64,000 nucleotides of DNA from an uncultured bacterium (GCA_903922465.1 CAIXTV010000067.1:216-64215); one strand, 5' to 3'. Positions 10,849 through 53,309 are shown, counted from the first letter of the stretch. Notes: generated by a model from the letters alone, not told the origin. Translations and numbers: made by a program.

Positions 10849-11226
10849 TTTATTACATACCGCGGCAATTTTATTACACTCCGCAACATTAACAGCACAT
10901 CCGGCAAGAGTTTTATTACATACCGCAACTTTAACAGTACATCCGGCAAGATATTCATTACACTCCGCGACTTTAACAGTACATCCGGCAAGAGTTTTAT
11001 TACACTCCGCGACTTTAACAGTACATCCGGCAAGATTATAATTACACTCCGCGACTTTAATAGAATACTCCGCGACTTTAATAGAACATACCGCGGCATT
11101 TTCATTACGCTCCGCGACATTAATGGAACATACCGCGGCATTTTCATTACGCTCCGCGACATTAATGGAACATCGAGAATGTTTTTTATTACACCCGGCG
11201 ATATCAATGGAACATCGGGAGTGATG
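10849..11226. repeat. Tandem array 1: 18 x 21-bp units, mostly alternating A/B (42-bp period)
   Basis: Units tttattacactccgcgacttt / aacagtacatccggcaagagt and variants, contiguous with no spacers. Confidence 0.92.
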
Positions 11227-11522
11227 TATAATATATTGGGTTTGGTAAATAAGACTTCGGGGCGATTTTTTTTTTATTAGGAAAACTGAAACAGTTGTTG
11301 GGAGAGTTTGATAAAGGTGGCTGCCTATATTTTCATGTATATTTATGATAATTATTGAGTAAGGAATTCATTAACGGCCAAATATGGTCTTATTGGCAAA
11401 TGATGAGTATTGGGTTTAAAATTAATGTTTCTAATGATGCATAATTCGAGGTGCTTCTTAGTCGATCTTTTCATTTTTTGAAAAAAAAAATCTTCATCAT
11501 TATTAGGAAAAGGGAAAAATTG

Positions 11523-11530
11523 TATATTTG
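11523..11530 (+). promoter_or_regulatory. -7 promoter box (TATATTTG) for the AAA ATPase pair
   Basis: TAnnTTTG match 18 bp before ATG 11549. Confidence 0.55.
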
Positions 11531-11548
11531 TCATGTAAATTGAATAGT

Positions 11549-13687
11549 ATGAAACACACTAAAAGCCTTTTCCTCAAAACAAGAGAGGATCTGGGATATA
11601 AGGGTCCCATTAAAAGATTTGATCAAAAAAAATATCAAGCCAAACTAATTGATGGATATATTGTTCAGGGCGAAATTGTTTTTGGTTCGCGCTATAATGA
11701 TGTGGTCGCTTATGAGTTTGACCAAAACGGAAAAGTTAAAGAAGAAGAACAACATATAATAGATAGCTCATATACTTTAAATTCATATAATGAAAAGGGA
11801 GAGAAATTTGATAGTAAATTATTTTTTCAAGATGGATCTCAGAATACATATTCCACTTATGAATATGACGAAAATAGTAATATGATCGGGTTTATTCATT
11901 ACGATAGCAATAATCAACCTACTTCAAGGGCTGATTATATTTATAATAAAAAGGGATTTTTGGTGAAATATATTCATTTTGATAAAGATAATAAACTTAC
12001 CCAAACGATTAATTATATAAATGATGAGAACGGAAACCAGCTTGATCAGAAGAACTACAAGACCGATGGCACCCTTTCTTATTGGTGTGTTAATAAATAT
12101 AATGATAAGGGGCATTCCCTCGAATCTATAACAATGAATCCGGATGGTAGTGTTCAAAAGACGCTTAAATATAACTTTATATATGATGATGATGGGCATG
12201 TCATTGGGAGCAATGGGCAATTATATCGTGATGATCCTGAACCCGAACACACAGATTATGAGTTCGATGGTTTTGGCAATTGGACCTGCCGAGTTATATT
12301 TCACCACAAATTACCTGTATTTATATATCTGAGAGAAATTAGCTATCATTCAGATAATGTTGAGGAAATTATTCAGTCCGATACGCCTAAAAAAATAGCT
12401 TATACCATCAAAAAATCAGATAAAAACAAAGCAACAACCCAAAATATGGAAAACACTCCTCCTGCCACTAATCCCAAACTCGAATATCAGGAGTTGGAAG
12501 AATCTCAGGCTAAATGGCTTGCCGAAGCATGCACAGTTGAGCTATTTCCAGTGGTGCGCTATTATGCCATACAGAATAACGAAATGCCTTCAGCCACAGT
12601 TTATCGTGGACACGACATCGAAGTAACTGCACTATTAACAGAACTTCAACAAGAAATGGGGGCAAAGATAATTCATTCATATAGCCAGCAATATCTCAAT
12701 TGGGGCGAAGAGAATCTGAATAGCGTGGTGCTGCGTTTCCCCAATAAAAGATATCTCGTACTCATAAGCGGCATATATTCACAAAACGAATCGGTCTACC
12801 TAGTTCCCGAATTTTTTGATAAATATCACGAAGGCTGGGAAAGCTCATTAGATATAGGGCATCTTACATTGTACCATCCAACGGATGATTCAGACTTTCG
12901 TAGCACAGCCTTCGAAGAAGAACTTGAAAGTTATATCAACCTCTGCTCTCTCGAAAAAGTGCCCGATTTACCCGAAATACAAATGGTTGAAGTTGATGGC
13001 TCGGGCGAATATCAGTTGAAAACCTATCCCGTGAACGACAATTTTCTTATTAAAAACCTCGACATACATTATGGCTATGGTTTCGAAACCTTTCATAATA
13101 AACTTATGGATAGATTTAAACACGAAACCAAAGGACTGGTTTTGTTCCATGGCGAACCGGGCACCGGAAAAACCTACTACATCCGCCACCTGCTGCGCCA
13201 CATGGCACAAAACAATAAAGTAGTTATCTACATACCCCCTAATATGGTGGAACGATTGGTCGATCCGGCATTTTTCACCTTTCTTTCCAGCGAATTATCC
13301 GATTATTCCACAGAAGGAAAATTTTGCGTCTTACTGGTAGAAGATGCCGAGCCTCTGCTGGCTTCACGACAAAATGAAGGCAGAGTAATAGGAGTGTCCA
13401 ATTTGCTAAACCTTACCGACGGACTGTTAAACGATATGATGAAACTCCAAATCATTTGCACCTTCAACGTTAAAATACAAGAACTCGACGCAGCTCTCCT
13501 CCGCCCGGGCCGTCTGATTGCCCGAAAAGAATTTAAAGCCATGTCGATGATCGATGCCAACCGCCTGGCACAACAACTGGGCATTAAACATCATTTCACT
13601 GCCCCCGTCAGCATCGCCGAAGTGTATGCTCTTCAAAAAGACAAAAACACACTGACCCATACGTCCATTGAAGAAGAAGATTTCTGA
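11549..13687 (+). CDS. YD/RHS-like repeat domain fused to BCS1-like AAA ATPase (paralog 1)
   Basis: N-terminal YxYDxxGN-type repeats ending YEFDGFGNW...REISY; Walker A GEPGTGKT, Walker B VLLVEDAE, LLNLTDG, DAALLRPGRL. Confidence 0.8.
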   Translation: MKHTKSLFLKTREDLGYKGPIKRFDQKKYQAKLIDGYIVQGEIVFGSRYNDVVAYEFDQNGKVKEEEQHIIDSSYTLNSYNEKGEKFDSKLFFQDGSQNTYSTYEYDENSNMIGFIHYDSNNQPTSRADYIYNKKGFLVKYIHFDKDNKLTQTINYINDENGNQLDQKNYKTDGTLSYWCVNKYNDKGHSLESITMNPDGSVQKTLKYNFIYDDDGHVIGSNGQLYRDDPEPEHTDYEFDGFGNWTCRVIFHHKLPVFIYLREISYHSDNVEEIIQSDTPKKIAYTIKKSDKNKATTQNMENTPPATNPKLEYQELEESQAKWLAEACTVELFPVVRYYAIQNNEMPSATVYRGHDIEVTALLTELQQEMGAKIIHSYSQQYLNWGEENLNSVVLRFPNKRYLVLISGIYSQNESVYLVPEFFDKYHEGWESSLDIGHLTLYHPTDDSDFRSTAFEEELESYINLCSLEKVPDLPEIQMVEVDGSGEYQLKTYPVNDNFLIKNLDIHYGYGFETFHNKLMDRFKHETKGLVLFHGEPGTGKTYYIRHLLRHMAQNNKVVIYIPPNMVERLVDPAFFTFLSSELSDYSTEGKFCVLLVEDAEPLLASRQNEGRVIGVSNLLNLTDGLLNDMMKLQIICTFNVKIQELDAALLRPGRLIARKEFKAMSMIDANRLAQQLGIKHHFTAPVSIAEVYALQKDKNTLTHTSIEEEDF

Positions 13688-13738
13688 TAAGTTTTAGTTA
13701 TTCAAACAAAAATTATTAAGTTTATTAGAACGAAAAAT

Positions 13739-15877
13739 ATGAGAAATACGAATAATCAAAAAGGCAAAAACATTGACGAATACAAACTAAAGGGAAAGCT
13801 TAAACGATTAGAGGAAAATGTTTACGATGCAGCCTTGAAAGGTGGCTATATTCTGAAGAAAGAGAAGAATGAAGATATGGGTTTTGATTATAATACCATC
13901 CTCTTTTTTGATGAAAATGGAAATAAAAGAGAAGAAACATTTGGACACCTACATCAATTTCAATTGAAACATATTTTTGACGAAAATGGAGTTGAAACAG
14001 AGCAGCATTCAATTGAAAAAGATATTTTAAAAAGTATTGTTTATTTTGAATATAATGAATCAGGCAAAAAGTCTAAATTTACACACTTTGATATTGAAAA
14101 GAATTCAGTTTCTTCAATTTCTTATTGGCAGTACGATGAAAACCAAAACCTGATAAAAATAATATATAATGATGGCGATGATAATCTGACTCAAACAAAC
14201 GAATTTATTTATGATGCCAATGGACACAAAATCGAACAAAAATATACTAATGCTGATGGAAGCATAACATATTGGGCTTTATTTACTCCTGATACACATG
14301 GAAATGCAATTGAAACCAAGAAATTAAATCCTGATGGGTCTGTAAAAGAAATTGAAACCAAAACATATTATTATAATTCAGAGGGGAAAATAATAGGCAT
14401 CAACAACAAAAGTTTTAATACCAAAGATAACAATTTTTTTATCGAACAAGAATTCGATCATCATGGAAATTGGATTTTAGGAATTATGTATGAAAAAAAA
14501 ATCCCTAAGAGTCTATCATATAGGAATATAATATATTATGACGAGCCCGACAATGCTTCAAATAATGTCATTGAGGAAACAATTAAAATCCCATACCGCA
14601 AAGATAAAATTGAGGAAGAAATTGGGAAAGACCCTTCCAAAGCTAGTAGATTCAATTATCAGAAAGCACTAATAGCACATCCCGAAACCCCAAATGCTGA
14701 ATGGCTGGCTATGGGAGGGAGCTCTGGAGATTACCCTGTAATTCGACATTATGCTTTGCTAAACAAGGATATACCCTCAGCGAAACGAATTTTCGATCAA
14801 AACGTTGACGTGATTAAGCTATTGGGCGAATTGAAAGAAAATATGGAAGCGGAGATCCTATGCACCTACGATTCCTTTTATCTGAATCTACAAGAAAATG
14901 AGCTACATGATTATGTTTTAGCATTTGCAAACGAATATTATTTTTTGCAAATTAAAAACATACAAGTGCTTTCCGACAAAGAATATAATATTGAGGAATA
15001 TTTTTTTGATATGTACCCACCCAGACGAAAAGGGTATGTATATATCGGCGACATTATACTATACTATCCAAGCGAGTTTTCAGGTAAAAGAGACGAGGAC
15101 TTTGAAAGCGATTTGGAATATTATTTAGATCAATGCAATTTAGAAGAAAAACCCGAGCAACCCTATATTGAAATAGTGCAGGTGGATACAAATAATCAGT
15201 TTACTCTGAATTCTTATCCAGTTGTAAACGATTTTAGTATCAACGATTTGGATTTAAACTATGGCAAAGGATTTGAAGCTTTTCATGATAAACTGATTCA
15301 GCGGTTTAAAAGCGAAACTAAAGGATTAATACTTCTCTATGGCGACGCTGGGACTGGAAAAACCTATTACATACGTCACCTTTTACGCCATATGACAGAA
15401 AACGACAAGGTTGTAATTTATATGCCTCCCAATATGGTAGATCAACTGCTCAATCCAAACTTCATAACCTTCCTCTCCAACAGCATTTCACAGCTTGCAC
15501 GAAACGGAAATTCCTGTGTTTTATTAGTGGAAGATGCCGAACCCTTGCTCGTTTCGCGCGAACATTACTTGCGTTCAATGGGCATTTCCAATCTGTTGAA
15601 TCTCACCGATGGTCTGTTAAATGATGTGTTGAATATACAAATCATCTGCACCTTCAATGTGAAAATACACGAACTCGATAAAGCCCTCCTCCGCCCGGGG
15701 CGACTGATTGCACACAAAGAATTTAAAGCCCTCTCTGCTCTGAATGCCAACCGCCTGGCCCAACAATTGGGCATCAAACATCGCTATAGTGTTCCGGTAA
15801 ATATTTCAGATGTTTATGCCCTCCTCGAAGGGAAAGAAATCTTAACTCATGATACATTGGATGGCGAGGACGTATAA
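13739..15877 (+). CDS. YD/RHS-like repeat domain fused to BCS1-like AAA ATPase (paralog 2)
   Basis: LKGKLK start, YDxNG repeats, EFDHHGNW...RNIIYY; GDAGTGKT, VLLVEDAE, LLNLTDG, DKALLRPGRL. Confidence 0.8.
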   Translation: MRNTNNQKGKNIDEYKLKGKLKRLEENVYDAALKGGYILKKEKNEDMGFDYNTILFFDENGNKREETFGHLHQFQLKHIFDENGVETEQHSIEKDILKSIVYFEYNESGKKSKFTHFDIEKNSVSSISYWQYDENQNLIKIIYNDGDDNLTQTNEFIYDANGHKIEQKYTNADGSITYWALFTPDTHGNAIETKKLNPDGSVKEIETKTYYYNSEGKIIGINNKSFNTKDNNFFIEQEFDHHGNWILGIMYEKKIPKSLSYRNIIYYDEPDNASNNVIEETIKIPYRKDKIEEEIGKDPSKASRFNYQKALIAHPETPNAEWLAMGGSSGDYPVIRHYALLNKDIPSAKRIFDQNVDVIKLLGELKENMEAEILCTYDSFYLNLQENELHDYVLAFANEYYFLQIKNIQVLSDKEYNIEEYFFDMYPPRRKGYVYIGDIILYYPSEFSGKRDEDFESDLEYYLDQCNLEEKPEQPYIEIVQVDTNNQFTLNSYPVVNDFSINDLDLNYGKGFEAFHDKLIQRFKSETKGLILLYGDAGTGKTYYIRHLLRHMTENDKVVIYMPPNMVDQLLNPNFITFLSNSISQLARNGNSCVLLVEDAEPLLVSREHYLRSMGISNLLNLTDGLLNDVLNIQIICTFNVKIHELDKALLRPGRLIAHKEFKALSALNANRLAQQLGIKHRYSVPVNISDVYALLEGKEILTHDTLDGEDV

Positions 15878-15916
15878 CAAAGTTTTAAGACTTCTTAATG
15901 AGGCTTCCATCCAATT

Positions 15917-15974
15917 AAAAAAACAAGCTTACCAAAGAACAGCAAGAGCAAAAGTCTACCATTTCGAAACTCAA
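15917..15974 (+). repeat. Diverged 58-bp copy of an internal envC segment (9875-9932)
   Basis: 51/58 identical by manual alignment, same strand. Confidence 0.85.
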
Positions 15975-16079
15975 CAATGAAAAGGTGTTTACAAGTTCAA
16001 AATGATTAATCCCAAAAATGAAAGATAAATGTGTAAATTTGCATTGAAAACGGTCAACCGTATTTAGGCATGGACACAT

Positions 16080-16107
16080 TGTCCATTGTCAACTGTCCAT
16101 TGTCAAC
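16080..16107. repeat. Heptamer repeat tgtccat/tgtcaac x4
   Basis: tgtccat tgtcaac tgtccat tgtcaac. Confidence 0.6.
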
Positions 16108-16171
16108 TAAAAAGCCTAACTCCAAGCTATAGGCACTCTAGTCACTTCCTCAACTAATATCATATCATTTC

Positions 16172-16318
16172 CATCTAGAACAATCTTAACCCCATCCAGA
16201 ACAATCTCAACCTCATCCAGAATAATCTCAACCTCATCCAGAACAATCTCAACCTCATCCAAAACCAACTCAACCCCATTTGCAACTAACTCAACCCCAT
16301 TTGCAACTAACTCATGCT
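16172..16318. repeat. Tandem array 2: 7 x 21-bp units
   Basis: catccagaacaatctcaacct grading into catttgcaactaactcaaccc. Confidence 0.92.
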
Positions 16319-16458
16319 CATATTACAAAATCTAAGCCATATTCCACTAATTACAAGACAAATAATCAATCACTTAACCCTTTTTCGCCCAATTAATACA
16401 TCAACTCAAACCAATCTAACTAAGAACTAATTCTGCCGAAAATAATTCTATCATATTT

Positions 16459-16807
16459 ATGTTGAAAAAAAATATTACCTAAAGTTTTTCTCATTTCTAA
16501 TTACTCATTTTAGATTTTCCCAACTAGCTTATTATGAAGCATTCTTTCTTGCTTCGCGTCGTGCCGATATTGGCGTACATCACACCGGGCTAAATGCTTC
16601 AGTAACTCTTAATGGCGCCGCTGTTGCAGGAGGAATCGTAAGCGTTGGCGAAAAAACTTCAGTTTCTAACACCGAAGGAATTTGCGATCCAATTATTGTA
16701 CGTTCAGGCTTAAAAGAAATCACTTGTGAACTTTCCGGACAAACTAAAAAACAATCAACCACCGTTTCATCCGTGGTCACATGGACGATATGACATTCGA
16801 ATTCTAA
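16459..16807 (+). pseudogene. Decayed remnant of a helical + Ig/carboxypeptidase-regulatory-like protein gene
   Basis: Startless open frame 16446-16793 (LITHFRFSQLAYYEAFFLASRRADIG...VSVGEKTSVSNTEG...); out-of-frame ATG at 16459; plausible tail KTINHRFIRGHMDDMTFEF* in shifted frame; followed by terminator. Confidence 0.55.
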
Positions 16808-16837
16808 ACAAAATTGTCTTTACCCCAAATATCAATT

Positions 16838-16866
16838 CCCGCATTCTGTCCCTGCGGGTTTTTTTT
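16838..16866 (+). terminator. Rho-independent terminator
   Basis: cccgca-N9-tgcggg followed by T8. Confidence 0.7.
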
Positions 16867-16978
16867 ATCCCTTTAGTTCTTGAAACCTGCCAGGTTTAAC
16901 CTTCTATTCTAGTTCTTTCTTCCCTTTGAATTTGGAATTTGGATCTTCCACTTCTTCCTACAGCCTAAGGTCTATAGC

Positions 16979-18256
16979 CTAATAGCCAACTTGCATTTTC
17001 TTCCAAAGTCTCTTACTCAACATCCGCGATTGTTCCAACACAGCCCCTTCATCAATGCGGGTGAGCACTTTATCTTTCAACACCATTTCTCCTTTGGAAA
17101 CAACATGGCGGACATGTGCGGCATTCAAGCCAAACACAAAATGCCCTAAGAAATTATCCTGACCAAAAGCCGTGGGGGTATCATAATCCAACACCACCAG
17201 ATTATTGGCACTATGGCCATTGAACCCGTTCGTTTTCAAATATCGGTCGGCATTGCGGAAACGCTGATAGACGCTTTCGTAATTGATATTATCGAATCTT
17301 TGTCCAACAAAAAAAGCGGCTTTGGCACTGCGGAGCATATCGCTGTGCATGCCGTCGGTGCCCACCATTATATTTGAACCAAGTCCTGCACCATTGAAGT
17401 AACCCACATTGTTGTTGAGATTGCTTTCGGTGTTTTGCACCACCCAACAGGGGCTGTTTCGGATGAGCTCTTTTTCAGCATCATTCAAGTGCAGGCAATG
17501 CCCCAGTATGGTCTTTTCGAAATCCAACATGCCATGTTGTTGCAGGCGTTCCACTATACGTTTGTGGTAATGTTCCACACAATGCTCCTGATCGCTTTCA
17601 GCTTCTGCCACATGAATATGGATGCCACTTTTATATTCCTTTGCAAGACTTACTGCCTTTTGCAGCGTATCATACGAAACCGTAAAAGAAGCATGCAAAC
17701 CCACCAATCCTTGACGGGAACTGAGGTATTGAGCCGTTTCATCAAGCCCTTGTTGCGCTTTCTCCAATCCGCCACGATCGGTAATTTCATAGCAAAGCAA
17801 ATGCGAAGCCCCCACTTGCTCAAATGCACGGGCAATAATATCGAGCGAACCTTTAATATAATTGGGCGAAGCATGATGGTCAATCACGAAGGTGACCCCG
17901 TTTTTAATACAAGCCATAGCGGTAGTGAGGGCACTGGCTTCAATCATTTCGACATCGAGACAAGTATCCAGGGTCCACCAAACATATTGCAATATTTCAT
18001 TAAAGTTCTTTGGAATCACTTTGGGCGCGCCCATGCCCCTAGCCAATGCCGAATACACATGATGATGCCCGCAAACAAAAGATTGGGTAACGTATTTCCC
18101 TTTGCAATCGATAATATTAAGGTTCGAAACATCATCAGGCAATTGGTTGAGCAATTCGATTTTCCCTTCTAATCCTTCATGAACCAGAATATGCTTTGAG
18201 CTAAATTCAAGCGTTTCGGGATGAATATAGGTGCCATTGGTGAGTAGTATAGCCAT
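16979..18256 (-). CDS. ssnA: SsnA-like metal-dependent aminohydrolase
   Basis: HHHVYSALARG, DHHAS, GLHASFT, HIHVAE, GTDG; adjacent to XDH. Confidence 0.8.
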   Translation of the reverse strand: MAILLTNGTYIHPETLEFSSKHILVHEGLEGKIELLNQLPDDVSNLNIIDCKGKYVTQSFVCGHHHVYSALARGMGAPKVIPKNFNEILQYVWWTLDTCLDVEMIEASALTTAMACIKNGVTFVIDHHASPNYIKGSLDIIARAFEQVGASHLLCYEITDRGGLEKAQQGLDETAQYLSSRQGLVGLHASFTVSYDTLQKAVSLAKEYKSGIHIHVAEAESDQEHCVEHYHKRIVERLQQHGMLDFEKTILGHCLHLNDAEKELIRNSPCWVVQNTESNLNNNVGYFNGAGLGSNIMVGTDGMHSDMLRSAKAAFFVGQRFDNINYESVYQRFRNADRYLKTNGFNGHSANNLVVLDYDTPTAFGQDNFLGHFVFGLNAAHVRHVVSKGEMVLKDKVLTRIDEGAVLEQSRMLSKRLWKKMQVGY

Positions 18257-18259
18257 AGT

Positions 18260-20821: not shown

Positions 20822-20878
20822 GGAATATTGATTTGAGGATAAAATTAAAGAATATATTATTGCTGAAACGGAATTACC

Positions 20879-22135: not shown

Positions 22136-23614
22136 TTATAATGATTTAAGAACGCCGGTGGCTTCGTTAAATTCGTTAATCATTTCGTCCCATTTGTTGG
22201 CTTGTTGCAGCATGTTGTCCCAAATGGTACGGTCGTACCAGAGTTGATTCAGGTCGTCGATTTCCTTTGCCTGTTGTTCAACCCAAGTAAAATATTTAAG
22301 ATTATGAATGGCTTTACGATCGTAATAATTCAGTTCTTTCAGATGGTCGGTTCCTTGTCCCAACAAACATTTTTCCATGTCTTTTACTGCCTGAGTCGAA
22401 TTGTAAGCACCTTTTTCAAGGGTTAATTCTTCCAAACGGGATTGGTACATTTCTGCAGAATCGGTGGCAAGGGTAAGAATGATATCGTCATTTGTCATTT
22501 CGTAATATTTAGCTGCTTTAATGGCTGAAAGCATATTGGAAATGCCCGAAATACCAAGCAATCCCAGAGAATCAACAAAGCTTGCATCAAGTCCTAATGA
22601 GCGAAGATAGTTTTTACCATCGGCTTCGTTGAACAAACGGAAGATGCGCATACAATCTTCATCGTCAATGGCGGTTATCATATCGGTGTTTTTAGCATTA
22701 TGCACCCAAGGGACATGCTTGTCGCCAATACCTTCGATACGATGTCCCCCAAAACCATTGTTCAAAAGCGTTGGACATTGAAGGGCTTCGGAGGCCACAA
22801 TTTTCATCTGAGGGAATTGTTTTTTCAGATAATCGCCAGCCCCAATCGTTCCGGCAGAACCTGTTGCCGAAACATAAGCAGCCAGTTTTCCATTGGCAGA
22901 TTTCAATTTGTTGAACACTTCCTCTGCTGCAGGGGCGGTAACATTGTAATGCCAGCAAGGATTCCCGAATTCATCAAACTGGTTAAAAATGACACAATCG
23001 GGACGGTTGCGGCGAATATCCCAACAAGCATCGTAAATTTCCTTTACATTCGATTCACAGCCGGGGGTGGCAATCACTTCGGCACCAATTTCTTTTAACC
23101 ATGAAAAACGTTCCTTACTCATCTCTTCGGGGAGGATAGCCACAGCCGTAACCCCCATCAAATAAGAATCGAATGCGCCGCCACGGCAATAATTACCTGT
23201 GCTGGGCCAAACAGCTTTATGGTAAGTAGGATCGAACTCCCCTGTGAGAATGCGAGGGGCAAGGCAACCATAGGCAGCACCCACTTTATGTGCTCCGGTA
23301 GGGAAATATTTCCCAACAAGCAACACAATTCTTGCTTTCACTCCGGTGATTTCAGAAGGGATTTCGATGTAATTCACATTGCCATATAAGCCACCCTTGG
23401 CTATAGGTTCGTTTTTCCAGGTAATGCGAAACAGGTTGGCAGGATGTTTATCCCAAAGACCAATTGTTTTCAGGGTAGCTTTAATTTTATCGGGAACGAG
23501 TTCGGGATTGCGCATTTGAGCAAAAGTAGGCAACACTATTTTCCTCTCACGGAAGCGATCGACAGCTTTTTTCAGTACGTCAGGATTTACAACTTTGTCG
23601 GATATAGTTATCAT
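22136..23614 (-). CDS. PLP-dependent enzyme, cysteine-synthase/ammonia-lyase-like (fold type II)
   Basis: PTGAHK (PLP lysine), PSTGNY, ATGSAGTIG, HRIEGIG. Confidence 0.75.
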   Translation of the reverse strand: MITISDKVVNPDVLKKAVDRFRERKIVLPTFAQMRNPELVPDKIKATLKTIGLWDKHPANLFRITWKNEPIAKGGLYGNVNYIEIPSEITGVKARIVLLVGKYFPTGAHKVGAAYGCLAPRILTGEFDPTYHKAVWPSTGNYCRGGAFDSYLMGVTAVAILPEEMSKERFSWLKEIGAEVIATPGCESNVKEIYDACWDIRRNRPDCVIFNQFDEFGNPCWHYNVTAPAAEEVFNKLKSANGKLAAYVSATGSAGTIGAGDYLKKQFPQMKIVASEALQCPTLLNNGFGGHRIEGIGDKHVPWVHNAKNTDMITAIDDEDCMRIFRLFNEADGKNYLRSLGLDASFVDSLGLLGISGISNMLSAIKAAKYYEMTNDDIILTLATDSAEMYQSRLEELTLEKGAYNSTQAVKDMEKCLLGQGTDHLKELNYYDRKAIHNLKYFTWVEQQAKEIDDLNQLWYDRTIWDNMLQQANKWDEMINEFNEATGVLKSL

Positions 23615-23698: not shown

Positions 23699-23950
23699 AT
23701 TTCTGTCACTTGCTATTTAACGACCATCAACAGTCATAAAACGACTGTCACTTCTCATTTAACGACCATCAACAGTCATAAAACGACTGTCACTTCTCAT
23801 TTAACGACCGTCAACAGTCATAAAACGACTGTCACTTCTCATTTAACGACCGTCAACAGCTATAAAACGACTGTCACTTCTCATTTAACGACCGTCAACA
23901 GTCATAAAACGACTGTCACTTCACATTTAATGACCATCAACAGTAATAAA
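23699..23950. repeat. Tandem array 3: 12 x 21-bp units (6 x 42-bp A/B dimers)
   Basis: acgactgtcacttctcattta / acgaccRtcaacagtcataaa, near-perfect copies. Confidence 0.94.
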
Positions 23951-24079
23951 ACGAATGTTAACTGAAAAGTATTTTCAAAAAAAGGTATTTTCAATTTTGC
24001 CTTATCTTCATAATTGTTGAAGATTAAAAAACTAGCCCCTGTCAAGGGTGTGATTTTTGCATCTAAATATCTGAAATAC

Positions 24080-24928
24080 CTATCTTGAATAAGTAATCAT
24101 TACATCTTTTGGATGTATGCTTAATACTGGATAAGGTGAACGATTTACCAATTGTTGTGCATAGGTGCCTAAAATGAAACTATAGGTGCTTTTTTCCTGT
24201 TCGGTCATTATTGAAATTAAATTAGCATCCATTTTTTCGCAATGTTTAATAATGTCTTCGGTTGCATTTTCAGATCTGATAATTTCAACCTGATGTTTAA
24301 TATTCTTTGCATAAAGGGATTTTTCAACCTGATCAACATAAACTTCTGTTCTTTTAGCTAAAGCTTTAATTTTTGATGTAATAACTCCAAGAATAAAAAT
24401 TTCAGCATGATAATGTTTGGCTAATTCGAGAGTGAAAGGTACTTTTTGACGTGTTTGATCAGAGCTATCGATAGGGAGCACTATGCCTTTGAGGGGTTTC
24501 TTGACATTGACTCCTCCTCTGATGGTTACAGTAGGACAATGCGATGAAGCAATTATTCTATTGGCATTACTTCCAATAAATATTTCTTCAAAGCCTGAGG
24601 AACCGTGGGTTCCGGTTACAATTAAAAATGCATTTTTTTCTTTTGCTTCTGAAACGACTTCTTTATAAACTTTCCCTTCTCTGATTTTATAGGATAATTT
24701 ATTAGTAGTAAGTTTAGGTTGGTACTTTTTAATAAGTTCTTCGAAACGATGATTTACAATGTCTTCTATTTTCTCACCTTTATCTTTAATCAATTCGCTT
24801 CTGCTGTTATTGCTTTTAACCCAAAGCAATTCAATGTCATGTTTTGTTTTGGCAGCCATGTCAAGCGCATGTTCAAATGCATTTATCGAGCATTCTGAGA
24901 AGTCAATGGGAACAATAATTTCTTCCAT
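24080..24928 (-). CDS. Universal stress protein (tandem Usp domains)
   Basis: IIVPIDFSECS, IVTGTHGSSG...IGSNA...CPTVTI; second domain LPIDSS...GTYAQQLVNRSPYPVLSI. Confidence 0.9.
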   Translation of the reverse strand: MEEIIVPIDFSECSINAFEHALDMAAKTKHDIELLWVKSNNSRSELIKDKGEKIEDIVNHRFEELIKKYQPKLTTNKLSYKIREGKVYKEVVSEAKEKNAFLIVTGTHGSSGFEEIFIGSNANRIIASSHCPTVTIRGGVNVKKPLKGIVLPIDSSDQTRQKVPFTLELAKHYHAEIFILGVITSKIKALAKRTEVYVDQVEKSLYAKNIKHQVEIIRSENATEDIIKHCEKMDANLISIMTEQEKSTYSFILGTYAQQLVNRSPYPVLSIHPKDVMITYSR

Positions 24929-28745: not shown

Positions 28746-29120
28746 TTAGGCTATTGTAGCAACACTCCAATCTAAATTATTACAAATTAGTATTACCGTT
28801 CGATTACCTTCTTCTTTATATACAACAACATACTGAAATTCTACTTGGCCAATATCATTTTCAATTACACCGTTTGAACGATAATCACTATCTACTACAA
28901 CACGAGCAATATCTCTTGCTGTTTTTTCTTCATCACCTCCATGTTCTGCTTCAGTTATCGCATCCCTTAAGGTATCCAAATGGGTCCTCATTGTAGCCAC
29001 AACAACAACTAGATTAGGGAAGTTTGCATTCTCATCTAAACCTGCAACAGCGTTGTATCCCTTTTGTAAGGCTACAACTTCTGGGAATCTTGAAATATCA
29101 ACTGCTACTTTATAAATCAT
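28746..29120 (-). pseudogene. Internally deleted paralog of the helical + FN3 protein at 52353-52997
   Basis: N-terminal helical region (NANFP, HGGD, DYR) then jumps to short beta-strand remnants; 124 aa vs ~210 aa. Confidence 0.5.
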
Positions 29121-29202: not shown

Positions 29203-29349
29203 TTAATTCAAAACATGTCTGCATTAATTCAAAACATGTCTGCATTAATTCAAAACATGTCTGCATTAATTCAAAACATGTCTGCATTAATTCATTTCGT
29301 GTCTGCATTGATTCATTGTATGTCTGCATTGATTCATTTTTTGACTGCT
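29203..29349. repeat. Tandem array 4: 7 x 21-bp units
   Basis: ttaattcaaaacatgtctgca x4 perfect, then 3 progressively diverged units. Confidence 0.94.
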
Positions 29350-29677
29350 TTTTTAAAGTAAAATCTTCAATGAACTAAATTCAATCATTTTTGATAAAAT
29401 CATCTTATCTTTTTTTTAAAGCCTCCTTTCTTTTACTATTTGAAATCATGTGATAAAAATAATATGAGAAATTTTATTGAAATGAGAATACTTCCCAAAT
29501 ACTTCCAAGCATCTTCTGTAAGCCAACAGCAACAAGGGTTTCAAAAAGTGATTTTTAGTGAAGATTTTTTTAGTAGAAATATTTTAATGTTTTTTAGGCT
29601 AAATCATCTTATATTTTGCCTATTCCGCACACATCATAATTTTGGAAATGAATTTGAAAAGAAGTAAGAATAAACTC

Positions 29678-29849
29678 TAGATTCCTCTGATATTGTTTGG
29701 TTGACCCCAACTATTGTTTGGTTGGCCTCAACTATGGCCTGACGACTTGTCCCCGAGCTATTTCTTCCTCTCTATTCTCATAAAGAGCAGGGAAATTCAA
29801 TTTTGCAATAATGCTTTTAAATATTCAACACTCCAAAGAACATTCTATG
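29678..29849 (+). repeat. Dispersed repeat copy A (inverted relative to 36492-36664), containing 21-bp units
   Basis: Aligns by eye to reverse complement of 36492-36664; contains tattgtttggttgaccccaac-type units. Confidence 0.85.
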
Positions 29850-36491: not shown

Positions 36492-36664
36492 CATAAAACC
36501 TTCTTTGTAATGTTGAATAATGCGAAAATTTCATTACTGAATTTGAAATTTCCTCTCATTAAGAGAAAAGAGAGGAAGAAACAGCTCAGGGACAATACGT
36601 CAGGCAATGGTTGGGGACAACCAAACAATAGTTGGGGATAACCAAACAATATTAGAAGAATCTA
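36492..36664 (-). repeat. Dispersed repeat copy B (inverted copy of 29678-29849); degenerate 21-bp units continue to ~36735
   Basis: gttggggacaaccaaacaata / gttggggataaccaaacaata units plus conserved tail. Confidence 0.85.
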
Positions 36665-36867
36665 TAGAATAATTGGGGCTAACTTAACAATAGCAGAGGA
36701 ATCCCGACCTCAGAAAGGAATCCCGACAATACAAAAGAACACTATCCCATAAAGTTTTTAAACTAAAACTTTGATTTTTCAACCGTTCTCGTTGGTTTTT
36801 GAATATTGAAATTTAAGAAATGGAATTTATAAGTCTTATCTTTGCAAAACCAAAATAAACAAAACCC

Positions 36868-43833: not shown

Positions 43834-43836
43834 TTT

Positions 43837-45948: not shown

Positions 45949-45953
45949 TGGGT

Positions 45954-47009: not shown

Positions 47010-47012
47010 AAA

Positions 47013-48005: not shown

Positions 48006-48111
48006 GATTTTTTTCTTTAAAATATTTTGCTAATTTACAAAATATTTTGTTTGGGAATCTTTTTCTCTTTTCTCAAAGGAAATAAAAACACCCAATAATC
48101 ATTGGTAGTTA

Positions 48112-49407
48112 TTATAAACTCCAATAGGTGTGGTTTTTAATTTTGCCCCTATAAATTCCTTTAACATCAACAATAATAGCTTTTTCTGATGTTATTGTTG
48201 AGAAGTAATTCTCGTCTAATTCTAAGTATGGTTGATGATTAACGGCAATAATAACGGCATCATAATCTTTTCCGATATTTTCAATCAATTCAAATCCATA
48301 CTCGTGTTTAAGTTCTTTTGAGGAAGCATAAGGATCAACAACTTCAACATGAATGCCATAGGATTTTAATTCGCTGATTACGTCTGCAACCCTTGAATTG
48401 CGAATATCGCTGACATCTTCTTTAAAGGTAGCACCCATCACCAATACTTTTGCATTTAAAACATTCAAGCCAGCTGAAATAATTTTCTTTACGGTTTGCT
48501 TTGCAACATAAAACCCCATAGAGTCGTTTACAAAACGTCCTGAATTGATAATTTGCGCATGATAACGGAATTCTTTAGCTTTATAAGTTAGATAATAAGG
48601 ATCTACGCCAATGCAATGGCCACCAACAAGACCTGGAAAGAATTTAAGGAAATTCCATTTGGTGCCTGCTGCTTCGAGAACCTCATAGGTGTTAATTCCC
48701 ATTCGGTTGAAGATAATTGAAAGTTCGTTCATCAAAGCTATGTTGACATCGCGTTGTGTGTTTTCGATTATCTTAGCAGATTCAGCTACTTTAATAGAGG
48801 AAGCACGATGCACGCCCGCTTTTACTACCAATTCATATACTTTTGCTACTATGTCCAATGATTCATCGTCACAACCGGAAACTACTTTGGTTATGGTAGT
48901 AATTGTATGTTCCTTATCGCCTGGGTTTATTCTTTCAGGAGAGAAGCCAACTTTAAAATCTTTAACGAATTTTAAACCTGAAAGTTCTTCAAGGATGGGG
49001 ATACAATCTTCTTCGGTACATCCTGGATAAACAGTGCTTTCATACACAACATAGTCTCCTCTTTTTAACACTTTGCCAACGGTGCGGGTTGCAGCAAGTA
49101 GTGGGGTGAGATCGGGAAGATTATGATCATCAATAGGAGTTGGAACAGCTACAATATGAAAGGTTGCATCTTTAAGATCTTCAAGCTTGGCTGTAAACAA
49201 TATATCGCAATTGTCAAATGCTTCTGAGGTCAGTTCTTCGCTTGGGTCAATATGATTTCTCATCATTTCCACACGGTCTTCTTTAATATCAAAACCGACT
49301 ACTTTGATTTTTTTAGCAAATTCAAGTGCGATGGGTAAGCCAACATATCCTAATCCGATAACTGATAATTTTGTTTGTTTGTTAATGAGTTGTTCGTAGA
49401 GATTCAT
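48112..49407 (-). CDS. UDP-N-acetylhexosamine 6-dehydrogenase (WbpA/WbpO/TviB family)
   Basis: GLGYVGLP, YESTVYPG, SPERINPG, GGHCIGVDPYY. Confidence 0.9.
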   Translation of the reverse strand: MNLYEQLINKQTKLSVIGLGYVGLPIALEFAKKIKVVGFDIKEDRVEMMRNHIDPSEELTSEAFDNCDILFTAKLEDLKDATFHIVAVPTPIDDHNLPDLTPLLAATRTVGKVLKRGDYVVYESTVYPGCTEEDCIPILEELSGLKFVKDFKVGFSPERINPGDKEHTITTITKVVSGCDDESLDIVAKVYELVVKAGVHRASSIKVAESAKIIENTQRDVNIALMNELSIIFNRMGINTYEVLEAAGTKWNFLKFFPGLVGGHCIGVDPYYLTYKAKEFRYHAQIINSGRFVNDSMGFYVAKQTVKKIISAGLNVLNAKVLVMGATFKEDVSDIRNSRVADVISELKSYGIHVEVVDPYASSKELKHEYGFELIENIGKDYDAVIIAVNHQPYLELDENYFSTITSEKAIIVDVKGIYRGKIKNHTYWSL

Positions 49408-49417
49408 AGTGAATGAT

Positions 49418-50374
49418 TTAAATGGTTTTTAATATTGGATGATAATCGCCAATTAGGCCTATAGGTTCTGCGTTTCTTATTTGAAAAACTGTTTCAATGC
49501 TCTTTCGAGCATCTTCCAATCCGTATCCATTACCCGAAAGAATGTGCTGATAACTCAGGGTATGCAAATCAGTAAATCCATCGCTGAATTCAATTTCCTG
49601 ATTTTCTATTTTAATAGATCTGAAAGTTCGTTGGTTTCTTTGTTTTGCTTCCTCAGGTAGATTATTTGCATCAATTGACAAAAACCATCTAACACGAGCT
49701 TTTTTAAGCATCATAAAACCTGCTGCTGATTGAGGTGTAGACAAATGTACTTTACTTTCTTTCATCTCTCCAAATATCCATTCGAGCATGTCGAAGAAAT
49801 GAACACCAATATTGGTAGCAACTCCACCTGATTTGCTCATATCGCCTTTCCAAGATGTAAAGTACCAACTCCCTCTAGAAGTGATATAGGTTAAATCGAT
49901 ATCAAAAATCTTATCGGCAGGGGCTTTTTCAACTTCTTCTTTCAATTTCATTATTGATGGGTGAAGTCTTAATTGCAAAATGGTAAATATCTGTTTGTTT
50001 GATTCCTTCTCAATGGTTTGTAAGGCATCAATATTCCATGGATTTAATACTATCGGTTTTTCACATATAGCATAAGCGTCATTTCTCAAAGCAAGGCGTA
50101 TGTGGGAATCGTGAAGATAATTGGGCGAACAAATGCTTACGAAGTCAATTTTATATTCACCTTTTCGTCTTAGTTTATCTAAATGACGATCGAAACGTTC
50201 AGGTTCGAGGAAAAAAGAAGCTTGTGGAAAATAAGAATCAATAATTCCAATACTATCGAATTTATCAAGTGCAGAAACTAGGTTATTCTTTGTTTCTTTA
50301 ATCGCTTTCATATGGCGCGGGGCAATATAACCTGCGGCACCTATCAAGGCAAAATTGTATTTATCGTTTATCAT
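49418..50374 (-). CDS. wbpB: UDP-GlcNAcA 3-dehydrogenase (Gfo/Idh/MocA family)
   Basis: GAAGYIAPRH, CSPNYLHD, CEKP, TNIGVHFFD, FTDLHT; ATG 50374 follows stop of upstream gene. Confidence 0.88.
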   Translation of the reverse strand: MINDKYNFALIGAAGYIAPRHMKAIKETKNNLVSALDKFDSIGIIDSYFPQASFFLEPERFDRHLDKLRRKGEYKIDFVSICSPNYLHDSHIRLALRNDAYAICEKPIVLNPWNIDALQTIEKESNKQIFTILQLRLHPSIMKLKEEVEKAPADKIFDIDLTYITSRGSWYFTSWKGDMSKSGGVATNIGVHFFDMLEWIFGEMKESKVHLSTPQSAAGFMMLKKARVRWFLSIDANNLPEEAKQRNQRTFRSIKIENQEIEFSDGFTDLHTLSYQHILSGNGYGLEDARKSIETVFQIRNAEPIGLIGDYHPILKTI

Positions 50375-50376
50375 TT

Positions 50377-50958
50377 TTATCCAATTTTTGTTACACAATT
50401 ATCTTTTAAAAGATATTTTTCTTTGCTTTCGGGACATTCTGCAATGCCCTCTTCCTTGAATTGAAGACGATGACCATATTCGCTCATCCAACCCGACTGA
50501 CGTGCAGGATTCCCAATCATCAATGCATAGGCAGGGACTTCTTTTGTTATCACTGCTCCGGCTCCGATGAAAGCAAACTCACCTATTTCGTGGCCACAAA
50601 CTATAGTAGCATTGGCACCAATGCTCACTCCTTTTCTAACTATGGTTTTAGAATATTGGCTTTTGCGATTAACAGCGCTGCGAGGATTGATGACATTGGT
50701 GAAAACCATAGATGGTCCCAGAAACACATCATCTTCACATATAACTCCTGTGTATATTGAAACATTGTTCTGTATCTTTACATTACTTCCTAAAATAACT
50801 TCGGGTGAAATGACAACATTTTGACCAATATTACAGTTTTCACCAATAACACAATTGCTCATTACATGCGAAAAATGCCATATTTTGGTTCCTTTGCCTA
50901 TTTTGCATCCTTCGTCGATATAGGATGATTCGTGAGCAAAATATTCTTTTTCCATCAT
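50377..50958 (-). CDS. wbpD: UDP-GlcNAc(3NH2)A N-acetyltransferase (hexapeptide repeat)
   Basis: KIWHFSH, GQNV, KIQNNVS, FTNVINPR, GNPAR. Confidence 0.86.
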   Translation of the reverse strand: MMEKEYFAHESSYIDEGCKIGKGTKIWHFSHVMSNCVIGENCNIGQNVVISPEVILGSNVKIQNNVSIYTGVICEDDVFLGPSMVFTNVINPRSAVNRKSQYSKTIVRKGVSIGANATIVCGHEIGEFAFIGAGAVITKEVPAYALMIGNPARQSGWMSEYGHRLQFKEEGIAECPESKEKYLLKDNCVTKIG

Positions 50959-52088
50959 TATTTATTTATGAATTCTAATATTGAGGAGGTGATGTGTTTT
51001 AATTGTTCTTCATCCAATTCGGTGTGCATAGGCAATGAAACTACTGTGTTGCTTAGCATTTCGGTGATAGGAAAATCGCCAGCTTTATATCTTGGGTCGA
51101 GATAGGCTTTTTGCAAATGCAATGGAACTGGATAATATATCATAGCAGGAATGTCTTTCGTGCCTAAATAATCAATTAGTGCAGCGCGGTCAATACCACT
51201 TGTAACCAAAGTATATTGATGAAAAACATGATTGGTATAAGCAGCAGTGACTGGAGTTTTAAGATTTGGACAGTTTGCAAAGGCATTGTTGTAATACGTT
51301 GCGGCATTATTACGTGCCGTTGCATATTCGTCGAGGTGTTGTAGTTTTACTTTAAGAACGGCTGCCTGAATGCTGTCTAAGCGTGAATTCACTCCAACTA
51401 GGTCGTGATAATAGCGAACAACCATTCCGTGGTTCACTATGATGCGAAGTTGTTTTGCAAGTTCGTCGTCATTAGTAAATATAGCACCTCCATCGCCATA
51501 GCATCCTAGGTTTTTTGATGGAAAGAAAGATGTGCAACCTAGTTGTCCGATGGTTCCTGCTTTTTTGCGGCTTCCATCTTTAAATATATAATCGGCTCCG
51601 ATGGCCTGACAAGTATCTTCAATAACAAAAAGATTATGTTTTTCCGAAATTTCCATGATGCGTTCCATGTTGGCACATTGGCCGAACAAATGAACAGGGA
51701 CCACGGCTTTTGTTTTTGGTGTGATGGCTCGTTCGAAGGCTTCGGGATCGATATTAAAAGTGCCTTCTTCAACATCAACCAACACTGGTGTTAGTCCAAG
51801 CAATGCGATTACTTCGGCGGTTGCTATGAAGGTGAATGAAGTGGTAATTACTTCGTCGCCAGGCTTTAAATTGAGAGCCATCATGGCTACTTGCAATGCA
51901 TCGGTGCCATTAGCACAAGGAATTACATGCTTTACGCCCAAATATGTTTCTAAGTCTTTTTGGAATTGCTGTACGGCTGGTCCATTAATAAATGCAGTGT
52001 TTTCAATAACTTCCTGAATGGCATGATCGACTTCAGTTTTTATTTTTTGGTATTGACTTTTTAGGTCAACCATTTGAATTTTTTTCAT
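50958..52088 (-). CDS. wbpE: DegT/DnrJ/EryC1/StrS aminotransferase (WbpE/PorR-like)
   Basis: ANGTDAL, SFFPSKNLGCYGDGG, NSRLD; context wbpD/wbpB. Confidence 0.82.
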   Translation of the reverse strand: MKKIQMVDLKSQYQKIKTEVDHAIQEVIENTAFINGPAVQQFQKDLETYLGVKHVIPCANGTDALQVAMMALNLKPGDEVITTSFTFIATAEVIALLGLTPVLVDVEEGTFNIDPEAFERAITPKTKAVVPVHLFGQCANMERIMEISEKHNLFVIEDTCQAIGADYIFKDGSRKKAGTIGQLGCTSFFPSKNLGCYGDGGAIFTNDDELAKQLRIIVNHGMVVRYYHDLVGVNSRLDSIQAAVLKVKLQHLDEYATARNNAATYYNNAFANCPNLKTPVTAAYTNHVFHQYTLVTSGIDRAALIDYLGTKDIPAMIYYPVPLHLQKAYLDPRYKAGDFPITEMLSNTVVSLPMHTELDEEQLKHITSSILEFINK

Positions 52089-52237
52089 CTAAGTAATGTT
52101 ATAGTAAAATTTAGTTTTTGCAAAGATAGAATTTTCTATTCTACATTTTCAATTTTGATGTAATTCATCAGGCAAATAGTCCTCAGATGACTGTTCTCAG
52201 AGAGTAAAAGCGCAATTAGTTTGTCGATTTTAGATAT

Positions 52238-52308
52238 AAAAAAACTTTCCATTTTCCGTTAGCCTAAGAAAAAAGGTGTTTTTAGGCTAAAAGAAAACGG
52301 AAAGAGTT
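52238..52308 (-). terminator. Long imperfect hairpin downstream of FN3 gene
   Basis: tttccgtt/aacggaaa and ttagcctaa/ttaggctaa stems, T run on minus strand. Confidence 0.45.
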
Positions 52309-52352
52309 AAATTAGACAAGAGTCGATTGACAAATTTTTTGGTATTTCGAAC

Positions 52353-52997
52353 CTATGCTTTTGTGCGGAAAGGAATAGGATTGCAATACGCTCCGATGCC
52401 TGTTGGAAAAACACCGGCAACACGAATTAAATATCTAGTATCAACCTTTAAATTAGTAATCTCCATTGCGAGATTTTTGTTCCCAGCTAGAATAACATAA
52501 ACTGGGTCGTGACCCGAAATGATTTCGGCAACCTGAGCTAAATATGCTCCAGCGCCTTTTTCTTTAGGATATTCAATATTAACGGTACCTGCTTCAACTC
52601 CATCTTCAGCTTTGAAAATCCTTGGACCTCTTGGTTTTGGATCTTCATATAATTCGAATTTCATTTCAACAGGTAATGCAGGAAGATTATTTTCATTGGC
52701 ATAGTTTTCAACACATAAAGCAGTGCCACGATAGTAATCGCGTAGTAGAAAAATTCTATCCTTTAAACGAATTCCGGCAGCCTTGTCGCCACCTTTCCAC
52801 AAATGGAAATCGATTGTTGAGGAAGCACAAAGATTATTAATCTCTACAACAGTATGGGGATAATTAGTAATTTCGGTGTGACTGGTCATTTCGATAGCCA
52901 TATTCTGATTACGTTCAATAACAACCAAGGGGTTTCTTGATTTGATGGATGTTTTAACTCTAATGATGATGATCATTAATAATATATTTAGTTTCAT
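52353..52997 (-). CDS. Hypothetical protein: N-terminal helical domain + C-terminal fibronectin type III domain
   Basis: FN3 pattern GTVNIEY..GAGAY...ITNLKVDTRYLIRVAGV...G.G.Y; start may be ATG 52976; no clear signal peptide. Confidence 0.72.
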   Translation of the reverse strand: MKLNILLMIIIIRVKTSIKSRNPLVVIERNQNMAIEMTSHTEITNYPHTVVEINNLCASSTIDFHLWKGGDKAAGIRLKDRIFLLRDYYRGTALCVENYANENNLPALPVEMKFELYEDPKPRGPRIFKAEDGVEAGTVNIEYPKEKGAGAYLAQVAEIISGHDPVYVILAGNKNLAMEITNLKVDTRYLIRVAGVFPTGIGAYCNPIPFRTKA

Positions 52998-53097
52998 TTT
53001 ATTTGTTTTTAAAGTGATTATATTTTTTTTATTTGCAATTTGTTTTATTAAAGAAAATTGTTTTATGATTTGATTCAGACATTATTTATGTTTAGAA

Positions 53098-53309
53098 CAA
53101 CATACAAGGAACAACGAGCAACATACAGGGAGCAACGAGCAACATACAGGAAGCAACGAACAATACCTATTGATGCAACGAGCAACATACAGGAAGCAAC
53201 GTGCAATATGCTGGAAGAAATGATCAACACACAAGGAGCAACGTGCAATACCTATTGATGCAATGTGCAACATAGTGGAAGCAACAATCAACATAGTGGA
53301 AGCAAGCTC
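53098..53309. repeat. Tandem array 5: 10 units of 21 bp (two of 22 bp)
   Basis: caacatacaggaagcaacgag consensus; 22-bp variants caatacctattgatgcaaYgWg at 53161 and 53246. Confidence 0.88.

Follow-up and report, generated by a model that had tools for sequence, protein, structure and literature searches.

Non-coding tandem arrays with 21- or 42-bp units in a lake-water Bacteroidia genome keep their period while their sequences turn over

Why should tandem arrays that lie in separate intergenic gaps, and whose unit sequences are unrelated to one another, all be built from units of 21 bp? The question is raised by a 64,000-nucleotide stretch of DNA from an uncultured bacterium (GCA_903922465.1, CAIXTV010000067.1:216-64215), which we refer to as the window. 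An initial annotation of the window reported six such arrays between positions 10,849 and 53,309 and proposed that a shared constraint acts on their length and not on their sequence. We called tandem arrays in the window with Tandem Repeats Finder (TRF) and genes as open reading frames (ORFs), and found five solid arrays and one weak item of about 2 copies; every window array is situated between long ORFs. Five of the six reported places were thereby borne out, while the fifth of the series proved to hold only 2.1 to 2.2 copies, inside the arms of an inverted repeat.

The window is contig C67 of a lake-water Bacteroidia assembly (genome G000; 5,024,480 bp in 312 contigs, 36% G+C). TRF returned 1437 rows for the whole assembly, with 417 at period 21, 175 at 42, 65 at 63, and 39 at 84. 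Merging these rows gave 863 array loci, 407 of which had a period divisible by 21 and together spanned 71,257 bp. We classed arrays with a crude ORF-based gene map, the non-genic class comprising intergenic arrays and arrays that themselves create short ORFs. Among non-genic arrays with a fundamental period of 15 to 30, 275 of 426 were at 21, compared to 22 at 20 and 18 at 22; 63 non-genic arrays were at 42. In the intergenic class, there were 3, 18, 173, 14, and 10 arrays at fundamental periods 19, 20, 21, 22, and 23, respectively, and 6, 40, and 6 at periods 41, 42, and 43; periods of 10 to 11 (9 arrays) and 31 to 33 (7 arrays) were both rare. Arrays within long ORFs had the usual spread across multiples of three. 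We concluded that the excess at period 21, on which the initial annotation had staked its proposal beforehand, is far beyond chance. Non-genic arrays of at least 60 bp with a 21-type period numbered 322 (64 per Mb), and 80 of the 322 lay within 100 bp of a contig end. The arrays are thus a major source of assembly breaks in this metagenome-assembled genome (MAG), their real lengths are probably underestimated, and the breaks that they cause, with a quarter of arrays at contig ends, explain the fragmentation of these assemblies. Gaps that hold arrays are tandem, divergent, or convergent about in proportion to gap length, and their median length after subtraction of the array is ~600 bp, compared to 78 bp for array-free tandem gaps.

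The initial annotation had rejected the idea that the arrays encode heptad-repeat proteins, and our data agree. A frame was open over at least 95% of the length in 258 of the 322 arrays, and the coding potential of units (0.24) was slightly above that of shuffled units (0.18), as a heptad-coding explanation would have it. However, shuffled units still leave 3.8 of 6 frames open, compared to 4.1 of 6 for real units, and genes score 0.34. Periods of 20, 22, 41, and 43 occur, and 97 of the 322 arrays contain indels (the remaining 225 are indel-free). Paralogous copies of the second window array, inspected by eye, have no frame that stays open throughout. The translations are unlike proteins: those of the window ORFs spanning arrays 1 and 3 are implausible, and one translated frame overlaps the start of a real gene. 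We concluded that the arrays are non-coding, and we regard heptad-repeat proteins as a barely credible explanation.

Consensus units of 21 nt could be derived for 286 arrays. A relative at no more than 4 mismatches, in any rotation and on either strand, was found for 137 of them, compared to 2 of 286 after shuffling; single linkage sorted the 286 units into 200 families, of which 149 were singletons. The claim that the unit sequences are unrelated holds among the six window arrays and fails beyond them, since arrays 2 and 4 have relatives elsewhere in the genome. Unit composition is near-random, and there was no 7-nt sub-period (unit self-identity at a shift of 7 was 0.274, compared to 0.280 for shuffled units). 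Dyad symmetry was in small excess, since 13 of 208 units had a stem of 6 nt or longer, compared to 20 of 1040 shuffled units; hairpins account for only a few arrays, and we rejected them as a general explanation. Adjacent units differ by a mean of 15.5% mismatches and 1.4% indels, and similarity among the units of one array is maintained (median, 84% matches). The two halves of 42-mers were at least 50% identical in 12 of 57 cases and below 50% in the other 45, so most 42-mers are genuine, and a period of 42 is permitted independently of 21. The arrays are richer than other intergenic DNA in G+C (38.5% versus 30.1%) and CpG (0.041 versus 0.018), which indicates that they are not simple duplications of their surroundings.

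We clustered the 467 genes that neighbor arrays and extended the resulting families by iterative hidden Markov model (HMM) searches. In small paralogous families of unknown function, nearly every member had an array, always on the same side of the gene: in one family, all 8 members had an upstream array of 41/42 bp (one of them 22 bp); in another, 7 of 9 had an upstream 21-bp array; in a third, 4 of 4 had a downstream array. The HMM searches led to two super-groups, S1 (~300 amino acids [aa]) and S2 (~320 aa), and to smaller families. After full-length expansion, 70 of 89 genes adjoined an array, compared to 13% of all genes, and 9 of the 19 array-less genes had their 5′ side no more than 600 bp from a contig end; after expansion with the N-terminal domain, 72 of 95 genes adjoined an array, against the same 13%. 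Viewed from the arrays, 77 of the 322 adjoin an orphan-family gene, 66 of them upstream and 11 downstream. The period class follows the super-group, with 21-bp arrays in 30 of 34 cases for S1 and 42-bp arrays in 13 of 16 cases for S2. Enrichment beside arrays extends to a family of long proteins with 153 members (40 neighbors, compared to 20.4 expected). Arrays showed no strand skew relative to the neighboring gene. The median distance from array to start codon is 223 bp. The sequence TAnnTTTG, which we take to be the Bacteroidetes-type promoter box (-7), occurs no more than 150 bp from the start of 41 of 87 family genes, compared to 306 of 976 background genes, at a median of 59 bp before the start. 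The promoter therefore lies between array and gene.

The arginyl-tRNA synthetase (ArgRS) encoded in the window is no more than 62% identical to named records, all of them from Bacteroidia and chiefly from Bacteroidales MAGs. On this comparison we rejected a cyanobacterial source, which the heptamers had at first suggested. We sampled six other genomes in part (64 to 400 kb each) and counted arrays of at least 60 bp. In G001, a member of the same genus (ArgRS identity, 90%), 392 kb held 82 arrays of 21-type per Mb, with 30 of 79 arrays at period 21 and 10 at period 42; 200 kb of G002, also of the same genus (ArgRS identity, 75%), held 10 per Mb. In G089, from another family of the order, 400 kb on 5 contigs held 42.5 per Mb, and 22 of 52 arrays were at 21. 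Three further genomes of the same order gave one 21-type array in 64 kb (G011) and none in 400 kb sampled from each of G031 and G105. Array density tracked the copy number of the orphan families across G001, G000, G089, and G002 (82, 64, 42.5, and 10 per Mb) and the array-less samples of G105 and G031. Across 80 other Bacteroidota, the surroundings of ArgRS (1.35 Mb in all) contained 99 non-genic arrays, of which 20 had periods of 20 to 22; these were mostly short. We concluded that the array burst extends beyond one genus, and a weaker bias in period may be widespread in the phylum.

Arrays also stay with their genes across genera. Of 121 genomes sampled from the order, 10 encode S2, and it is multi-copy in those that do. 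We ran TRF on 30 S2 loci, comprising 22 from eight other genera, 4 from G001, and 4 from G000. An upstream 41/42-bp array of 2 to 12 copies, with an unrelated unit, was found at 17 of the 22 loci from other genera, and 2 more had a downstream 42-bp array; of the 3 array-less loci, one had just 200 bp of upstream sequence and two were partial gene matches. The upstream array was present at 3 of 4 loci in G001 and 4 of 4 in G000. S1 in four other genomes had an upstream 21- or 42-bp array at 7 of 12 loci, and all 4 family-like ORFs in the G089 sample adjoined an array. For gene pairs at 60 to 80% protein identity, unit identity in the best rotation was 0.37 to 0.70 (mean, 0.52), compared to a background of ~0.43. 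Hence, arrays are inherited with genes yet diverge much faster. We concluded that array period is conserved as the sequence turns over. The proposal of a constraint on length and not on sequence is upheld by these findings: the periods are almost solely 21 and 42, and an orphan family keeps its 41/42-bp array while the unit is replaced. The arrays are not independent local inventions: many move together with genes, or with flanks (a head and a tail) that are conserved.

The second window array is of the latter kind. It consists of about seven 21-bp units at 16171 to 16314 (TRF period 21, 6.2 + 2.5 copies), between a conserved head at 16099 to 16170 and a conserved tail at 16315 to 16556 (both on the plus strand), which we identified by BLAST against the genome and, for the head, by alignment with five paralogous copies (for the tail, by paralogue alignment). 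CATTGTC-type heptamers at 16077 to 16108 precede the head. Array 2 is a member of a dispersed family whose copies have the flanks in common: head and tail are kept and the unit differs, being CCATCCAGAACAATCTCAACC in the window and CCATTTCTAACCAACTCAACC elsewhere, a drift between paralogous copies. The element matches contig C275 at 92% identity over 393 bp, array included. It lies in a 1.1-kb gene-free island (15896 to 16992; heptamers, head, array 2, and tail) that is absent from the syntenic site in the congener G001, where the orthologous flanking genes are separated by only ~37 bp. The stretch covered by the window is represented in lake or freshwater metagenome runs from three studies, and contigs from four lake metagenome runs break at arrays. 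Contig joints inside array 1 correspond to 63 bp and to 91 bp, the latter with 7 intervening letters and so a net 84 bp; inside array 2, a joint in one metagenome run steps back by 42 bp. At the level of contigs, arrays 1 and 2 therefore have copy-number variants of whole units (42, 63, and 84 bp).

The S1 and S2 proteins have no Pfam, PHROG, NCBIfam, or PADLOC name, a weak CarboxypepD_reg-like match being the only one, and a protein atlas gave only "hypothetical protein, Bacteroidota" for the orphan families. Profile comparison joined the N-terminal domains of S1 and S2 (probability, 70%; E value, 3.9e-5; 145 columns). Confident AlphaFold models (mean pLDDT, 89.9 and 84.4) predict, for each, a long bundle of helices and then a beta sandwich. 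In fold searches with these models, the predicted S2 sandwich resembled a PirA/Ena/cupin-like jelly roll (Z, 9 to 10) and the predicted S1 sandwich a transthyretin-like fold (Z, 12.1; rmsd, 2.1; 81 aligned); the bundle matched generically only, and no recognized DNA-binding fold was among the matches. The S2 profile, searched against 1.84 billion sequences, matched 2087 representative clusters at an E value of ≤1e-3 and 715 at ≤1e-30, and among the best 150 matches listed nearly all were ~316 aa. The S1 and S2 orphans form a large unnamed superfamily that is patchy and multi-copy in Bacteroidales, and a large uncharacterized protein family is tied to a recognizable DNA mark.

The closest known elements are two from Porphyromonas gingivalis, BrickBuilt (23-nt units) and MITEPgRS/464 (PgRS; 41-nt units), which form intergenic arrays (Klein et al. 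2015, PMC4596501). Those elements, like the arrays studied here, belong to Bacteroidales, are strictly intergenic and free of spacers, and have imperfect units, in 1 to ~23 copies. They share a conserved leader and tail with the array-2 family, their units measure close to two and four turns of the helix, and their neighbors are often secreted or CTD proteins; the 153-member long-protein family is enriched beside arrays here. There are differences. Each P. gingivalis element family has a single unit sequence, with ~19 copies per genome, whereas there are ~200 unrelated unit families and ~320 arrays here; the unit lengths are 23 and 41 there and 21 and 42 here. IS5-like terminal repeats were not identified here, in work that included no systematic search for them, and PMC4596501 describes neither gene-plus-array modules nor a period that outlives its sequence. 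Within the literature on bacteria outside subscription journals, we found no 21/42-bp phased arrays described besides BrickBuilt. The comparison suggests that BrickBuilt and PgRS are local cases of a wider Bacteroidales phenomenon.

We tentatively favor an explanation in which the arrays are one class of non-coding, helically phased minisatellites whose units span two helical turns (21 bp) or four (42 bp). They would spread and be inherited as parts of larger units and would not be re-invented at each site. One kind of larger unit would be a gene-plus-array module, in which a fast-evolving orphan gene has an array ~50 to 500 bp upstream, past the promoter; the other would be a dispersed head-array-tail element of BrickBuilt type. 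Slippage or unequal exchange would add or remove whole units, so that copies are homogenized and the sequence drifts fast, and selection would hold the period at multiples that leave every unit facing the same side of the helix. Each array would act through its geometry, as a curved or one-faced platform upstream of promoters that affects expression of the neighboring gene, and the platform could be intrinsic or could depend on cooperative binding of a general DNA-binding protein. Taken as a whole, an account of phase-selected, sequence-independent architectural arrays, gene-linked or BrickBuilt-like, seems to us a plausible one that falls somewhat short of being probable; selection on phase and an architectural or regulatory role are the steps that we infer. 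We hold more loosely, as possible, the further claim that Bacteroidales have a hitherto unrecognized cis element defined by period alone, which would be selected upstream of large fast-evolving orphan families across the order and, as an architectural module free of sequence requirements (such as a self-curving or one-faced platform for protein loading), would set or vary their expression. If period and not sequence is selected, the arrays would be a clean natural case of DNA geometry as a functional signal, with hundreds of replicates per genome.

The periods fit helical phasing. Because 21 and 42 are integer multiples of the 10.5-bp helical repeat, every unit lies on the same face of the helix; since 10.5 and 31.5 are not integers, the peaks at 21 and 42 and the scarcity at 10 to 11 and 31 to 33 fit the same rule. 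In a wedge model of DNA curvature, whose results are indicative only, random units of 21 bp were predicted to give the strongest curvature (end-to-end/contour ratio, 0.58), with ratios of 0.72 for 42 bp, 0.90 for 20 bp, and 0.84 for 22 bp.

Several observations weigh against the explanation that we favor. The wedge model also gives sizeable curvature at 11, 32, and 53 bp, periods that are rare here, and so is an incomplete account; in the same model, real units show no more bending than shuffled units (17.9 versus 17.3 degrees per unit), although this equality is what would be expected of a sequence-free mechanism. Geometry alone does not account for the surplus of G+C and CpG in the arrays, and neither does any other explanation weighed here. 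Variable positions within units are weakly clustered (Stouffer Z, 5.0; z > 2 in 10 of 108 arrays), which hints at some sequence constraint. Only ~24% of arrays genome-wide are beside orphan-family genes, so the module directly explains a minority. In the window, none of the six arrays is beside a recognized S1 or S2 small-orphan gene, and hhalign did not link the two window orphans that adjoin arrays (28746 to 29120 and 52353 to 52997) to the array-associated families. Window arrays sit in segments that have no counterpart in G001. Conversely, both flanks were found on a single G000 contig for 7 of 32 G001 arrays, and at 5 of these 7 syntenic sites there is no array in G000, which implies that many arrays are dispensable on short time scales; at the other 2 sites, a G000 array matches in period class. 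One filled site, 1.2 kb in length, combines hairpin modules, heptamer blocks, and a 21-bp array in a mosaic, and at one pair of filled and empty sites an A-run was seen by eye at both ends.

A serious rival, which suits arrays such as array 2, is that the arrays are selfish or neutral minisatellites on non-autonomous mobile elements of BrickBuilt/PgRS type, the period deriving from a few founders and the gene linkage from landing or co-duplication. In the array-2 family, the array drifts while the head and tail that enclose it are conserved; 145 of the 322 arrays have a flank similar to that of another array, the similarity being largely in heptamer blocks and terminator-like hairpins; arrays lie in long islands, rich in repeats, whose presence differs between congeners, and 80 of 322 are at contig ends. 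PMC4596501 also places the P. gingivalis 23-nt and 41-nt arrays within miniature inverted-repeat transposable elements (MITEs). Against this, sequences have reached random-level divergence (149 singleton families) with the period undrifted, and with indels at ~1/11 of mismatches, neutral drift should widen the period past the observed ±1. The S2 gene keeps its upstream position and period class across families of the order, and no terminal inverted repeats or transposase were identified, although no systematic search was made for them. We consider selfish spread an unlikely explanation. A lineage-specific enzyme or repair process that duplicates DNA in fixed 21-bp steps, so that a molecular ruler, not selection, sets the period, would explain the sharp period, the arbitrary unit sequences, and the limitation of the burst to some lineages. 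However, array composition is unlike that of local intergenic DNA, so the units were not copied from their surroundings; there are true 42-mers with unrelated halves; period class tracks gene family; and no candidate enzyme was identified. Templated expansion of this sort, which the initial annotation had listed among possible mechanisms, did not find support and has in our view little chance of being correct.

Plasmid iterons are direct repeats of ~17 to 22 bp, phased at about two helical turns, beside a rep gene. The arrays here likewise consist of direct repeats roughly two turns apart (275 of 426 at period 21), differ in sequence between loci as iterons differ between replicons, and are inherited with the adjoining gene. 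They could thus be rows of specific sites for a locus-specific protein, most simply the self-regulating product of the adjacent orphan gene, with phasing placing the sites on one face. This would fit the joint inheritance of gene and array, the likeness of units within an array (median, 84% matches), the weak clustering of variable positions, and two paralogues at 79% protein identity that, by eye, share two solid blocks of 11 and 8 nt in otherwise diverged 42-mers. In contrast to iterons, there are hundreds of arrays per chromosome here, with 5 to 20 contiguous copies, and the neighboring proteins appear from Pfam, NCBIfam, PHROG, and the structure models to lack a winged-helix initiator fold; the folds predicted for them, a helical bundle with a jelly-roll or transthyretin-like sandwich, include no recognized DNA-binding domain. 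Moreover, arrays diverge much more quickly than the proteins, and three quarters of them have no such neighbor gene. We regard specific sites of this kind as improbable. Lastly, the arrays may be transcribed and act as repeat RNAs or as processed 21- or 42-nt pieces. BrickBuilt segments show promoter activity in both directions (PMC4596501), and array G+C is near that of genes. However, there is no strand skew relative to the neighboring gene, hairpin potential is in small excess only, and an Rfam scan of the window matched one tRNA and no other family; exact multiples of the DNA helical repeat are not expected of RNA. An RNA-based function is accordingly as doubtful to us as a molecular ruler.

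Other known repeats are less similar. The sopC centromere of the F plasmid has twelve 43-bp repeats. Like the 42-bp arrays, it consists of tandem units of about four turns, which in sopC are a platform for a DNA-binding protein; it differs in that only one such locus exists, which has a partition operon and a defined motif for binding, and no ParB/SopB-like gene was seen beside arrays here. Promoter-proximal repeat tracts at contingency loci, with examples from Moraxella (PMC4679880), likewise vary in copy number close to promoters, and natural populations contain variants of different length (at contig level here). The units of 1 to 8 nt in those tracts alter spacing or helical phase, whereas a 21-bp unit keeps both phase and reading frame, and the arrays here lie upstream of the -7 box, outside the ORF and the core promoter. 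Heptamer repeats of the STRR/TAACTGA type have a 7-nt unit or sub-period that the 21-bp arrays lack. Separate 7-nt arrays exist in this genome: direct repeats of 7 bp (58 arrays) and 8 bp (48 arrays) are common in its intergenic DNA, and heptamer repeats are known from some Bacteroidetes (PMC4679880).

The remaining window arrays have varied neighbors. Array 1 (10869 to 11217) has ~16 units of 21 bp arranged as A/B dimers of 42 bp (TRF periods 21, 42, 63, 84, and 105) and lies 252 bp past the gene at 9256 to 10617(+) and 311 bp ahead of an AAA-ATPase gene at 11528 to 13687(+). A degenerate heptamer block (AAGATCC/AAGACCC/AAGCTCC and similar; 10653 to 10690, plus strand), detected by TRF and among shared-flank cores, precedes it, and blocks like it, of AAGNNCC type, are found beside many arrays elsewhere in the genome. 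Array 3 (23703 to 23958) has 6.1 copies of a 42-bp unit (= 12 × 21) whose halves are identical at 13 of 21 positions; it is 89 bp upstream of the PALP-enzyme gene at 22136 to 23614(-) and 122 bp downstream of the Usp gene at 24080 to 24928(-). Array 4 (29203 to 29336; 6.4 copies of 21 bp by TRF) is 83 bp upstream of an orphan ORF of 124 aa at 28746 to 29120(-) that has no family match. A related unit occurs in an array on contig C266, and array 4 belongs to a 16-member component linked by shared flanks.

The weak item consists of two-copy 21-mers (TRF, 2.1 to 2.2 copies) at 29691 to 29735 and 36605 to 36651. Each is inside one arm of an inverted repeat (29675 to 29787 and 36555 to 36667; arms of 113 nt, 86% complementary, 6767 nt apart), and they are therefore no independent array. 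The block between the arms (6.8 kb, five genes, including ArgRS) is syntenic with G001, where the arms were not seen; the bracketed block could be an invertible or once-mobile segment.

Array 6 (53098 to 53302) has ~10 units of 21 to 22 bp. TRF gave periods of 21 (with 7% indels), 43, and 85, which confirms the presence of 22-bp units among the window arrays, as had been annotated. The gap that holds it is divergent, with an orphan ORF of 214 aa at 52353 to 52997(-) 101 bp away and the ORF at 53962 to 56247(+) 660 bp away. A word-indexed search of 5.8 billion proteins with the orphan matched only itself; its last 39 residues have a weak match to the PHROG "major tail protein" (E value, 0.0019). 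The ORF at 53962 to 56247(+) is a long-protein gene with a Pfam Ig_7 domain and a member of the 153-gene family enriched beside arrays. Its true start is likely at 53633, where there is a signal-peptide-like N-terminus with a TAnnTTTG-like box ahead of it near 53598 (by eye), but a stop near 53780 divides this start from the ORF called at 53962; the stop could be a frameshift, a sequencing error, or the mark of a pseudogene. The genes downstream of window arrays are thus unrelated orphans for arrays 4 and 6, the 153-gene family member also for array 6, the PALP enzyme for array 3, and an AAA-ATPase paralogue for array 1. The last is one of two tandem paralogues (11528 to 13687 and 13739 to 15877) of ~715 aa each, with a C-terminal AAA ATPase domain, that belong to an 8-member family and have weak PADLOC matches to mad8 and TRIP13 (E values, 1e-4 to 1e-5).

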